A DNA stretch of 64,000 nt, from assembly GCF_000027125.1 (NCBI RefSeq), contig NC_017626.1; one strand, written 5' to 3'. Below the pieces are notes generated by a model. It had not been told where the DNA came from. It ran no database searches and worked only from the letters and a program-made list of their open reading frames with translations. Of the stretch, positions 44,558-49,740 are shown piece after piece (positions within the stretch are counted from its first letter, which is position 1; the number at the start of each line of letters is the position of its first letter). The translations under genes were made by a program, and so were the position numbers. The stretch is from Escherichia coli 042 (GTDB taxonomy: Bacteria; Pseudomonadota; Gammaproteobacteria; Enterobacterales; Enterobacteriaceae).

Positions 44558-44762
44558 AACGACCTTCTTTTTTGGTTGTAAAAACCTTATTCTTTATATG
44601 AGTGTTGTTATTACCCGACTTACAGGGGAATCGGCAATGTTCATGTGCCCAGAATAAGTAACTATTTCGCTATAAACTGTGGCAGATCAAATAATCCCAT
44701 CACTGACTAAATTGCGTTTCAGCGAACTGGAACATTAATGATTTTTTGTGGAGAAGACGCGT

Positions 44763-46463
44763 GTGATTGTTAAACGACCCGTCTCGGCCAGTCTGGCCCG
44801 GGCCTTTTTTTACATTGTGCTGCTGTCGATTCTTTCCACGGGTATCGCTCTGCTAACGCTGGCGAGCAGTTTACGCGACGCTGAGGCTATCAATATTGCC
44901 GGATCGCTGCGTATGCAGAGTTACCGCCTGGGCTACGACTTGCAAAGTGGCAGTCCACAACTCAATGCACATCGCCAGTTATTTCAGCAGGCACTGCATT
45001 CACCGGTATTAACCAATCTCAACGTCTGGTATGTGCCAGAGGCAGTAAAAACCCGCTATGCGCATCTGAATGCCAACTGGCTGGAGATGAATAATCGGCT
45101 CAGCAAGGGCGACTTGCCGTGGTATCAGGCCAATATTAATAATTATGTTAATCAGATAGACCTGTTCGTGCTGGCTTTACAGCACTACGCTGAACGCAAA
45201 ATGCTGCTGGTGGTGGCGATTTCCCTGGCTGGCGGCATCGGTATTTTCACGCTGGTCTTTTTTACTTTGCGCCGCATACGCCATCAGGTGGTTGCCCCGC
45301 TGAATCAGCTGGTTACCGCCAGTCAGCGTATTGAACACGGGCAGTTCGACTCGCCGCCGCTGGATACCAGCCTGCCGAATGAGCTTGGCCTGCTTGCCAA
45401 AACCTTTAACCAGATGTCGAGCGAGCTGCATAAATTGTACCGTTCGCTGGAGGCGTCAGTAGAAGAAAAGACCCGCGATCTCCACGAGGCCAAGCGTCGT
45501 CTGGAGGTGTTGTATCAGTGTTCGCAGGCGCTAAACACCAGCCAGATTGATGTGCATTGTTTCCGCCATATTTTGCAGATTGTTCGCGACAATGAAGCGG
45601 CTGAATATCTGGAGTTAAATGTCGGTGACAACTGGCGGATTAGCGAAGGGCAGCCAAACCCGGAATTGCCGATGCAGATTTTACCGGTGACAATGCAAGA
45701 GACGGTTTACGGCGAACTGCACTGGCAAAATAGTCACGTTTCATCATCAGAACCGCTGCTTAACAGCGTTTCGTCGATGCTGGGACGCGGTTTGTACTTT
45801 AATCAGGCGCAGAAGCATTTTCAGCAGTTATTGTTGATGGAAGAACGTGCGACCATCGCCCGCGAATTGCACGACTCGCTGGCTCAGGTACTTTCTTACT
45901 TACGTATCCAGTTGACGTTACTGAAGCGTTCGATACCGGAAGATAATGCCACCGCACAAAGTATCATGGCCGATTTTTCCCAGGCGTTGAATGATGCTTA
46001 TCGGCAGTTACGCGAGCTGTTAACTACTTTCCGCCTGACGCTGCAGCAGGCGGATCTCCCCTCCGCGTTGAGGGAAATGCTGGATACGTTACAAAATCAA
46101 ACCAGCGCCAAACTGACCCTCGACTGCCGTCTGCCAACCCTGGCGCTGGATGCGCAAATGCAGGTGCATTTGTTGCAAATTATTCGCGAAGCGGTGCTGA
46201 ATGCGATGAAGCACGCCAACGCCAGCGAAATCGCCGTTAGCTGCGTCACCGCGCCGGATGGCAATCACACAGTCTATATTCGAGACAACGGGATTGGCAT
46301 CGGTGAACCGAAAGAACCCGAAGGCCATTATGGTCTGAATATCATGCGCGAACGCGCGGAACGGCTGGGTGGGACGCTGACTTTTTCACAACCTTCCGGC
46401 GGCGGCACGTTAGTGAGTATTAGCTTTCGCTCCGCGGAGGGTGAGGAAAGCCAGCTGATGTAA
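44763..46463 (+). CDS. narQ: Nitrate/nitrite sensor histidine kinase
   Basis: Product from GTG-initiated MIVKRPVSASLARAFFYIVLL is 566 aa; HAMP domain and HisKA_3 H-box (ERATIARELHDSLAQ); track ORF begins 5 codons upstream. Confidence 0.93.
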   Translation: MIVKRPVSASLARAFFYIVLLSILSTGIALLTLASSLRDAEAINIAGSLRMQSYRLGYDLQSGSPQLNAHRQLFQQALHSPVLTNLNVWYVPEAVKTRYAHLNANWLEMNNRLSKGDLPWYQANINNYVNQIDLFVLALQHYAERKMLLVVAISLAGGIGIFTLVFFTLRRIRHQVVAPLNQLVTASQRIEHGQFDSPPLDTSLPNELGLLAKTFNQMSSELHKLYRSLEASVEEKTRDLHEAKRRLEVLYQCSQALNTSQIDVHCFRHILQIVRDNEAAEYLELNVGDNWRISEGQPNPELPMQILPVTMQETVYGELHWQNSHVSSSEPLLNSVSSMLGRGLYFNQAQKHFQQLLLMEERATIARELHDSLAQVLSYLRIQLTLLKRSIPEDNATAQSIMADFSQALNDAYRQLRELLTTFRLTLQQADLPSALREMLDTLQNQTSAKLTLDCRLPTLALDAQMQVHLLQIIREAVLNAMKHANASEIAVSCVTAPDGNHTVYIRDNGIGIGEPKEPEGHYGLNIMRERAERLGGTLTFSQPSGGGTLVSISFRSAEGEESQLM

Positions 46464-46538
46464 TGCCTCCGACTGACCAAAGAATACTGGCACTTTAGGT
46501 TCACTATAAAAGGGCATGATAATTTACATTAACTCCTT

Positions 46539-46556
46539 TTTTTCTCCACGATTGGC
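46539..46556 (+). promoter_or_regulatory. BaeR-box-like site upstream of acrD
   Basis: tttttctccacgattggc matches 17 of 18 positions of the recalled BaeR consensus TTTTTCTCCATDATTGGC, about 70 bp upstream of the acrD start. Confidence 0.5.
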
Positions 46557-46626
46557 TCGTACCTTGCCGCTACAGTGAAGCAAGTCAAGCCTACAACGAT
46601 ACGCAGAAACACGAGGTCCTCTTTTA

Positions 46627-49600
46627 ATGGCGAATTTCTTTATTGATCGCCCCATTTTTGCCTGGGTGCTGGCAATCCTGTTGTGTCTGACAGGGACCCT
46701 GGCGATTTTTTCATTGCCCGTTGAACAATACCCCGATCTCGCGCCACCGAATGTGCGAGTGACCGCTAACTATCCCGGCGCATCGGCCCAGACGCTGGAA
46801 AACACCGTGACCCAGGTTATCGAGCAAAATATGACCGGCCTCGATAATCTGATGTATATGTCATCTCAGAGCAGCGGCACCGGTCAGGCATCTGTCACTT
46901 TAAGTTTTAAAGCAGGCACCGATCCGGACGAAGCCGTGCAGCAAGTACAAAACCAGCTGCAATCAGCCATGCGAAAGTTACCGCAGGCGGTGCAAAATCA
47001 GGGCGTGACGGTGCGTAAAACCGGCGATACCAACATTCTGACCATTGCCTTCGTCTCTACCGATGGTTCGATGGATAAACAGGATATTGCCGATTACGTT
47101 GCCAGTAATATTCAGGATCCGTTAAGCCGCGTGAATGGCGTCGGGGATATCGATGCCTATGGTTCGCAATATTCCATGCGTATCTGGCTGGACCCGGCGA
47201 AACTCAACAGTTTCCAGATGACGGCTAAAGATGTCACTGATGCCATTGAGTCACAGAACGCGCAGATTGCGGTTGGGCAACTTGGTGGTACGCCTTCCGT
47301 CGATAAGCAGGCGCTCAACGCCACCATTAACGCCCAGTCACTGCTGCAAACACCAGAACAGTTCCGCGATATCACCTTGCGGGTGAATCAGGACGGCTCA
47401 GAGGTAAGGCTGGGCGATGTCGCCACCGTCGAAATGGGGGCGGAGAAATACGATTATCTTAGCCGCTTCAATGGTAAGCCAGCCTCCGGGTTGGGGGTAA
47501 AACTGGCCTCCGGCGCGAACGAAATGGCGACAGCGGAGCTGGTGCTCAATCGTCTTGACGAGCTGGCGCAGTATTTCCCGCACGGACTGGAATACAAGGT
47601 GGCGTATGAAACCACCTCGTTTGTTAAAGCCTCCATTGAAGACGTGGTGAAAACGCTGCTGGAAGCTATCGCTCTGGTTTTCCTCGTTATGTATCTGTTC
47701 CTGCAAAACTTCCGTGCCACGCTGATACCCACTATCGCCGTGCCGGTGGTGTTGATGGGAACCTTCTCCATACTTTATGCCTTCGGTTACAGCGTCAACA
47801 CCTTAACCATGTTCGCGATGGTGCTGGCGATCGGTCTGCTGGTGGATGATGCCATCGTGGTGGTGGAAAACGTCGAACGTATTATGAGTGAGGAAGGACT
47901 CACTCCTCGCGAAGCCACACGTAAATCGATGGGGCAGATCCAGGGGGCACTGGTCGGGATTGCGATGGTGCTTTCGGCGGTATTTGTACCAATGGCCTTC
48001 TTCGGCGGCACCACCGGTGCCATCTATCGCCAGTTCTCTATTACCATTGTTGCGGCGATGGTGCTGTCAGTATTGGTAGCGATGATCCTCACTCCGGCTC
48101 TGTGTGCCACGCTACTTAAGCCACTGAAAAAGGGTGAGCATCACGGGCAAAAAGGCTTTTTTGCCTGGTTTAACCAGATGTTTAACCGCAACGCCGAACG
48201 CTACGAAAAAGGGGTGGCGAAAATTCTCCACCGTAGCCTGCGCTGGATTGTGATTTATGTCCTGCTGCTTGGCGGCATGGTGTTCCTGTTCCTGCGTTTG
48301 CCGACGTCGTTCTTGCCACTGGAAGACCGGGGCATGTTTACTACCTCGGTACAATTGCCCAGCGGTTCAACCCAACAACAGACCCTGAAAGTCGTTGAGC
48401 AAATCGAGAAATATTACTTCACCCATGAAAAAGACAACATCATGTCGGTGTTTGCCACTGTTGGTTCTGGCCCTGGGGGTAACGGGCAAAACGTGGCGCG
48501 AATGTTTATCCGCCTGAAAGACTGGAGCGAACGCGACAGTAAGACCGGCACCTCGTTTGCCATTATCGAGCGTGCAACGAAGGCGTTTAACAAGATTAAA
48601 GAAGCTCGCGTTATCGCCAGCAGCCCGCCAGCAATTAGCGGTCTTGGCAGTTCTGCGGGTTTTGATATGGAGTTGCAGGACCACGCTGGAGCAGGTCACG
48701 ATGCGCTGATGGCAGCACGTAACCAGTTGCTGGCGCTGGCGGCGGAAAACCCGGAGCTAACCCGTGTGCGCCATAACGGCCTCGACGACAGTCCGCAGTT
48801 GCAGATTGATATCGACCAGCGTAAAGCTCAGGCGCTGGGCGTTGCTATCGACGATATTAACGACACACTGCAAACCGCCTGGGGTTCGAGCTATGTGAAT
48901 GACTTTATGGATCGCGGTCGCGTGAAGAAAGTCTATGTGCAGGCAGCTGCGCCATATCGCATGCTGCCAGATGACATCAATCTCTGGTATGTCCGAAATA
49001 AAGATGGCGGCATGGTGCCCTTCTCTGCTTTCGCGACCTCACGCTGGGAGACAGGCTCGCCGCGTCTGGAACGCTATAACGGTTATTCTGCGGTAGAGAT
49101 TGTCGGGGAAGCCGCACCGGGGGTCAGTACCGGTACGGCGATGGATATTATGGAATCGTTAGTGAAGCAGCTGCCAAACGGCTTTGGTCTGGAGTGGACG
49201 GCGATGTCGTATCAGGAGCGGCTTTCCGGCGCGCAGGCTCCGGCGCTGTACGCCATTTCCTTGCTGGTGGTATTCCTGTGTCTGGCGGCGCTGTATGAAA
49301 GCTGGTCGGTGCCGTTCTCGGTAATGCTGGTCGTGCCGCTGGGGGTTATCGGCGCGCTGCTGGCAACCTGGATGCGCGGGCTGGAAAACGACGTTTACTT
49401 CCAGGTGGGCCTGTTAACGGTCATTGGTTTATCGGCGAAAAACGCCATCCTGATCGTCTCGTTTGCTAACGAGATGAACCAAAAAGGCCACGACCTGTTT
49501 GAAGCGACGCTCCACGCCTGCCGTCAGCGTTTACGCCCGATTCTGATGACCTCGCTGGCATTTATCTTCGGCGTATTGCCAATGGCAACCAGCACGGGTG

Positions 49601-49740
49601 CCGGTTCCGGTGGTCAGCATGCGGTGGGTACTGGCGTAATGGGCGGGATGATTTCGGCCACTATTCTGGCTATTTACTTCGTGCCGCTGTTCTTTGTGCT
49701 GGTGCGCCGCCGCTTCCCGCTGAAGCCGCGCCCGGAATAA
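46627..49740 (+). CDS. acrD: RND-family multidrug (aminoglycoside) efflux pump
   Basis: 1037-aa [44 protein letters not shown]... with typical AcrB/AcrD architecture. Confidence 0.96.

Follow-up and report, generated by a model that had tools for sequence, protein, structure and literature searches.

How envelope stress reaches the efflux gene acrD of Escherichia coli is a question that leads to a short stretch of DNA in front of the gene. acrD is regarded as a core member of the BaeSR regulon and as directly regulated by BaeR (PMC3160322; PMC4107485), and a passage of PMC10052836 citing Hirakawa 2005 likewise treats the regulation as direct. Overproduction of BaeR induces acrD in E. coli, and induction of the gene by tungstate is lower in a Salmonella baeR mutant (PMC3160322). 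Furthermore, BaeR overexpression raises acrD about 4-fold in Erwinia amylovora (PMC3915751, PMC4107485), and CpxR is said to co-regulate acrD, an effect reported to be BaeSR-dependent (PMC4107485).

However, a ChIP-exo study of MG1655 in 5% ethanol detected BaeR at spy and mdtA, with no peak at acrD; acrD also lay outside the BaeR iModulon, and the authors call the regulation of acrD by BaeR indirect (PMC7657598). The missing peak is evidence against direct control, for one condition and one method. Our literature search returned no mapped acrD start site or usable footprint. The question is whether a BaeR-like sequence between narQ and acrD is the operator of this promoter and, if so, which of its positions are constrained.

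The BaeR-type box and its genomic setting

We analysed a 64-kb stretch of DNA, hereafter the window, whose positions are used throughout. The features needed at the outset are as follows.

44748..46463, + strand: narQ, upstream neighbour of acrD, given as context and outside the module (NCBIfam NarQ equivalog)
46539..46556, + strand: 18-nt BaeR box of the published type, TTTTTCTCCACGATTGGC (sequence, scan, K-12 identity, conservation)
46613..46616, + strand: Shine-Dalgarno sequence GAGG, 10 nt before the acrD ATG (sequence)
46627..49740, + strand: acrD, the regulated gene, an RND aminoglycoside/multidrug efflux permease of 1037 aa (NCBIfam NF007842)

The interval 46464-46626, which a preliminary description had singled out, is exactly the narQ-acrD gap, lying between an open reading frame that ends at 46463 and one that starts at 46627. 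The downstream product scores 2262 bits against the NCBIfam AcrD equivalog NF007842 (cut-off 1854), the gene order around narQ-acrD is the standard one for E. coli, and a region annotated with narQ/acrD was found in 5424 of 5426 complete E. coli genomes. At the Shine-Dalgarno sequence, ACGAGGTC is conserved among Enterobacteriaceae acrD orthologues. The narQ start in the list of open reading frames (44748, GTG, 571 aa) is 15 nt upstream of that of the 566-aa RefSeq NarQ, at 44763.

A terminator scan of 46300-46750 gave no match, and the 3' region of narQ folded no better than its shuffles (z = +1.0). Transcription from narQ may read through into acrD, since neither an intrinsic terminator nor a stable hairpin follows narQ (46464-46520). 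This same segment is polymorphic in E. coli, with 4 differences from K-12. The baeSR genes lie outside the 64-kb window; of 5426 complete E. coli genomes, 5422 carry baeR, and the source strain therefore almost certainly does too.

Within the 163-nt gap of this E. coli chromosome, positions 46539-46556 (+) read TTTTTCTCCACGATTGGC, ending 70 nt before the acrD ATG. The BaeR consensus 5'-TTTTTCTCCATDATTGGC-3' is credited to Nishino et al. 2005 in a passage of PMC3799227, and the same 18-mer appears in a passage of PMC3915751, where it is tied to Nishino 2007. The preliminary description had reported 17 of 18 positions matching at this place, and the count holds: the sole mismatch is a C in place of T at position 11, and the letter D allows the G that follows at position 12. 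No other match with three or fewer mismatches occurs on either strand of the 64-kb window (shuffled sequences lead one to expect 0.16), so the site is unique there. With independent bases, the expected number of matches with at most one mismatch is 2e-4 for 64 kb (both strands) and 3e-7 for the + strand of the 163-nt gap.

The weight of this score depends on where the consensus came from. We fetched the corresponding K-12 regions, and the K-12 acrD 18-mer is identical to that of the window, while the K-12 spy and mdtA sites are TTTTTCTCCATAATTGGC and TTTTTCTCCCTTATTGGC, respectively. A column-wise summary of these three sites rebuilds TTTTTCTCCATDATTGGC exactly, and the G in the consensus letter D (A/T/G) is supplied by the acrD site itself. 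Evidently, to judge from this reconstruction, the BaeR consensus was built from this same acrD site; the score of 17/18 is thus partly circular and says mainly 'K-12 acrD site'. Scored against spy and mdtA alone, TTTTTCTCCACGATTGGC matches at 16/18, which is still far above chance. The acrD box and the E. coli spy and mdtA boxes are identical at 15 of 18 positions; each is on the strand of the gene that it regulates, and all three precede core BaeSR regulon genes.

Conservation of the acrD upstream region

Orthologues were collected in one scan of species-representative genomes, using the first 400 residues of AcrD as query. This gave 57 orthologue loci with 74-99% identity, from Escherichia to Yersinia, Serratia, Erwinia, Pectobacterium and Hafnia, together with 23 AcrB-like paralogue loci at 62-65% identity. 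In 55 of the 57 orthologue loci the best match to the consensus lies upstream on the acrD strand, nearly always with the core TTTCTCCACG; the upstream regions of the paralogues mostly offer only matches with 5-8 mismatches, scattered at random positions. One sequence in Pseudescherichia vulneris, TTTTTCGCCATGCTTGTC, has 3 mismatches to the BaeR consensus but lacks the TCTCC core; it ends 232 nt upstream of an RND paralogue with 62% identity and is probably there by chance.

The window and the 57 orthologue loci (58 sequences) were then aligned with the core as anchor. The core is kept in 56 of the 58 upstream regions and belongs to a longer conserved block, ATTTACAyTwTCTCCTywwTTTCTCCACGwTT, at window positions 46522-46555 (comparison with 55 other acrD orthologues). 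Across these 55, positions 3-12 and 14-15 of the 18-mer are 94-100% conserved and positions 1, 2 and 13 are conserved only as W; its terminal GGC (positions 16-18) is not conserved (29-45%). About 14 further positions upstream of the 18-mer are strongly conserved.

Downstream of the block, TAnAnT begins exactly 28 nt after the start of the proximal TCTCC in 51 of the 56 core-bearing sequences, in the form TAmAGT, and the 15 nt between block and hexamer are unconserved. The spacing of block and hexamer is fixed even though the acrD ATG may be as near as 78 nt or as far as 347 nt. The composite pattern CTCC-N6-TCTCCAYG-N20-TANANT occurs in 35 of the 57 orthologue loci, always once, on the + strand and upstream of acrD, versus 0 of the 23 AcrB-like paralogue loci; CTCC-N6-TCTCCAYG is itself unique in the window at 0 mismatches. 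The gene narQ precedes acrD in only 25 of the 57 orthologue loci and the module persists in the 32 loci without it; therefore, the module belongs to acrD. These alignments show the 18-mer core, along with the -10-like hexamer, to be under strong constraint.

The same segment stands out within the species. Positions 46519-46580 are 100% identical in 5332 of 5386 E. coli records, whereas the adjacent 62 nt (46457-46518) gave a megablast match in only 397 genomes, 33 of them at least 99% identical, a contrast that is partly due to the 28-nt exact word that megablast needs. Rfam gave no match in the region at E ≤ 1. An RNA element or terminator as the cause of the conserved block was considered and rejected, there being no Rfam match and no fold better than shuffles.

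Half-sites and the ATTTACA element

The conserved block resolves into three parts.

46522..46528, + strand: ATTTACA element beside the repeats, outside the published box (TTTACA in 51 of 55 orthologues)
46532..46542, + strand: distal 11-nt half-site ACTCCTTTTTT, which repeats the proximal one in the same orientation, the period being 11 bp (orthologue alignment)
46543..46553, + strand: proximal 11-nt half-site TCTCCACGATT, at about -40 to -30 of the predicted start (55-orthologue alignment)

Of the 55 other orthologues, 48 carry TCTCCACG in the proximal half-site and the remainder carry near variants, always on the acrD strand. The distal pentamer reads TCTCC in 42 and TCTTC in 10 of the 55. 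The two direct repeats in the window can be written (A/T)CTCC-N6-TCTCC with an 11-bp period, and TCTCC or TCTTC followed by TCTCC is present in 52 of the 55 orthologues. Position 46532 is T in 53 of the 55 other orthologues; A is found in the window, in K-12 and in about 99% of complete E. coli genomes, and the distal repeat of E. coli is thus degenerate (ACTCC for TCTCC).

The ATTTACA element is as conserved as the BaeR core (94-98% at 46523-46528). Its minus strand, TGTAAAT, contains one GTAAA, i.e., half of a CpxR-type box. The full CpxR box GTAAA-N5-GTAAA was not found: the minus-strand GTAAA at 46523-46527 stands alone, and the pentamers at N5 distance agree with GTAAA in at most 1 of 5 positions. 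A putative CpxR site, GTAAA-agcgc-ATGAT, has been described in Salmonella (PMC4846824), and its counterpart here, aTAAAagggcATGAT at 46507-46521, is weaker still than the lone GTAAA match. The first pentamer of aTAAAagggcATGAT is without its G in this E. coli, and the element is only moderately conserved. ATTTACA was also compared by eye with the OmpR site (TTTACATTTT) and the EvgA site (TTCYTACA), and both assignments were rejected as it has no second half-site.

Comparison with other BaeR sites

The preliminary description had proposed a scan with a BaeR weight matrix. We trained such a matrix on 52 acrD sites, all from outside Escherichia, and it ranks the window site first with 37.8 bits, the runner-up in the 64 kb scoring -0.6. 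The matrix also recovers the BaeR box of K-12 spy (18.6 bits); it misses the K-12 mdtA site, which at -5.2 bits is not above background.

What the three K-12 promoters have in common is a geometry, as acrD, spy and mdtA all carry a [T/C]CTCCA hexamer 28 nt before TACA[G/C]T. They differ at box positions 10-12, which read ACG in acrD (near-invariant in its orthologues), ATA in spy and CTT in mdtA, and in the distance to the ATG (152 nt for the spy site, 84 nt for the acrD site). In mdtA, the core of the 18-mer lies 10 nt downstream of the hexamer that has the 28-nt spacing. This core, TCTCCCTTATTGGC, is lost in the mdtA orthologues of Klebsiella (TTTTTAAGCGGCGTTCGC) and C. freundii, and the conserved element of the Citrobacter and Klebsiella mdtA orthologues is TTTCATAATTCCTCCATTTTT with TAAACT at +28. 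The CCTCCA of TTTCATAATTCCTCCATTTTT has the same 28-nt distance to its TAmACT hexamer as is found in acrD. With its core lost from mdtA in Klebsiella and C. freundii, the published 18-mer describes the BaeR target imperfectly; judging by these alignments, it serves as a useful tag, although the unit that BaeR actually recognises is probably a different one.

The spy orthologues that we fetched have 89% column identity and are too close to part constraint by BaeR from constraint by CpxR. In K-12 spy, TCTCCA is exactly 28 nt before TACACT. The latter hexamer, which might mark a second, BaeR-dependent promoter, overlaps a TTTAC-rich region presumed to bind CpxR; downstream of it there is a sigma-70 promoter of better quality, TTGACG-N16-TAATCT. 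The 11-mer of the acrD proximal half-site, TCTCCACGATT, recurs in Citrobacter spy, where it precedes the box by 22 nt.

The half-sites can also be set against published BaeR sequences. The BaeR half-site of Yamamoto et al. 2008, TCTNCANAA, is quoted in a passage of PMC3799227. The proximal half-site, as TCTCCACGA, matches it at 6 of 7 specified positions and the conserved distal TCTCCTyww at about 5-6 of 7, the E. coli window copy starting with A and not T; the CTNCA core pointed out in PMC3799227 is present in the acrD site. For Erwinia amylovora, an acrD BaeR box TTCTTCACGATTACTGGC has been published, and BaeR shifts an acrD upstream fragment in EMSA (PMC3915751). Within that box, TTCTTCACGATT equals E. 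coli TTCTCCACGATT with one change. From the letters, the alignment of the E. amylovora box to the E. coli consensus in PMC3915751 appears to be 3 nt out of register; the register that pairs TTCTTCACGATT with TTCTCCACGATT agrees with the orthologue alignment of other Erwinia species. The box lies 148-166 nt from the ATG in E. amylovora and 71-88 nt in E. coli.

The BaeR protein itself matches OmpR/PhoB-type models, and its next-best family scores are for CreB and PhoB. Both the pho box of PhoB and the cre tag of CreB (TTCAC-N6-TTCAC) consist of direct repeats with a period of 11 bp and overlap a weak -35. By analogy, the acrD operator may be of the same design, with 11-bp direct repeats of which the proximal one would replace a poor -35. 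The acrD pentamer TCTCC differs from the pho/cre recognition pentamer.

These comparisons bear on the possibility that a different regulator, CpxR or another factor, reads the block and that BaeR acts indirectly, e.g., by cross-talk or through a BaeR-controlled regulator. Such a reading would agree with the lack of a BaeR ChIP-exo peak at acrD (PMC7657598), and it could draw on the near-invariant ACG at 46548-46550 and the ATTTACA at 46522-46528, both absent from spy and mdtA, as well as on the reported role of CpxR as acrD co-regulator and the GTAAA on the minus strand of ATTTACA. However, the likeness of TTTTTCTCC...ATTGGC to two undisputed BaeR targets is far beyond chance, a matrix made from acrD orthologues recovers the spy BaeR box, and BaeR binds the acrD upstream DNA of E. 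amylovora (PMC3915751). Furthermore, the block holds no complete CpxR box, and the CpxR effect on acrD is reported to be BaeSR-dependent. On balance, we consider control by a regulator other than BaeR improbable.

The predicted promoter

The conserved spacing places two further features downstream of the half-sites.

46571..46576, + strand: predicted -10 hexamer TACAGT (from the conserved TAnAnT spacing)
46582..46584, + strand: predicted transcription start, which would leave a 5' UTR of about 44 nt (placed by means of the -10-like hexamer)

A start at about 46583 would put the proximal repeat at about -40 to -30 and the distal repeat at about -51 to -41. A sigma-70 promoter scan of 46300-46750 gave no match; this fits an activator-dependent promoter and is not read as absence of a promoter. 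The sequence TTGGCT at 46553-46558 was considered as a -35 and rejected, being only 12 nt from the conserved -10 and containing the unconserved GGC.

The T-rich block might instead be a core-promoter feature that serves basal transcription, as an UP-like element, an odd -35 or a second promoter, TTTACA-N18-CACGAT. TTTACA does match the -35 consensus at 5 of 6 positions, and the block is indeed A/T-rich and immediately upstream of a conserved -10-like hexamer. However, CACGAT agrees with TATAAT at only 3 of 6 positions and the scan returned no sigma-70-type promoter. The most conserved parts are the C-rich TCTCC pentamers and not the A/T tracts, and the motif is common to three BaeR-regulated promoters. 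We regard this explanation as very improbable.

That the resemblance arose by chance and has no function is effectively refuted, as the circularity of the consensus and nothing else speaks for it, while only 2e-4 matches are expected per window and the motif is found at fixed spacing across about 30 genera.

Discussion

The conserved site between narQ and acrD is very probably the operator of a BaeR-activated acrD promoter. The earlier proposal that BaeSR induces acrD through this site is supported by the identity of acrD, the identity of the box with that of K-12, its conservation and the literature; it is qualified by the circularity of the consensus, the partial conservation of the 18-mer and the ChIP-exo result. 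The literature is our source for the dependence of acrD on BaeR and for the binding of BaeR to DNA upstream of acrD, while we infer the register of the half-sites, the -10, the start site and a class-II-like geometry of activation.

In the mechanism that we propose, envelope stress (indole, Cu/Zn, tungstate or flavonoids) would activate BaeS, and BaeR, a winged-helix regulator of the OmpR/PhoB family, would become phosphorylated. BaeR~P would then bind as a head-to-tail dimer to the distal ACTCCTTTTTT (46532-46542) and the proximal TCTCCACGATT (46543-46553). The proximal repeat is predicted to overlap the -35 position, where no good -35 exists, and therefore BaeR would recruit sigma-70 RNA polymerase to TACAGT at 46571-46576, with transcription from about 46583. 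The expected result is more AcrD, working with AcrA-TolC.

A broader version of the operator can be put forward, tentatively and with considerable doubt. Here the functional unit would be a composite of about 33 bp (46522-46555) in which ATTTACA and two TCTCC half-sites 11 bp apart are locked 28 nt upstream of the -10, following a [T/C]CTCCA-N22-TACAsT geometry common to acrD, spy and mdtA. ATTTACA would be a CpxR-type half-site standing alone, helically in phase with the BaeR repeats, and the A at 46532 would weaken BaeR occupancy. If this were true, the lone CpxR-type half-site would provide a physical explanation for the enhancement by CpxR that is reported to depend on BaeR, and the E. coli-specific T-to-A change at 46532, by weakening BaeR occupancy, could explain the absent ChIP-exo peak. 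Put as a hypothesis, a degenerate distal repeat in E. coli together with a helper role of CpxR could account for weak occupancy.

Returning to the BaeR operator itself, the site is one that has already been described and is known in the literature and in regulatory databases, so that the identification made in the preliminary description is correct but ordinary. The gain made here is modest: the circularity of the 17/18 score is exposed, the constrained positions are named, and a possible, testable cause is put forward for the absence of the site from one genome-wide binding study. In the resulting map of constraint, the GGC tail is unconstrained, while a second, upstream half-site and ATTTACA are constrained.

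The operator matters through the gene that it serves. acrD contributes to tolerance of aminoglycosides, beta-lactams (including temocillin) and metals/tungstate, and gain-of-function mutants of BaeS raise resistance via acrD. Given this role in resistance, knowing the exact operator helps to interpret promoter and baeS variants in clinical genomes.
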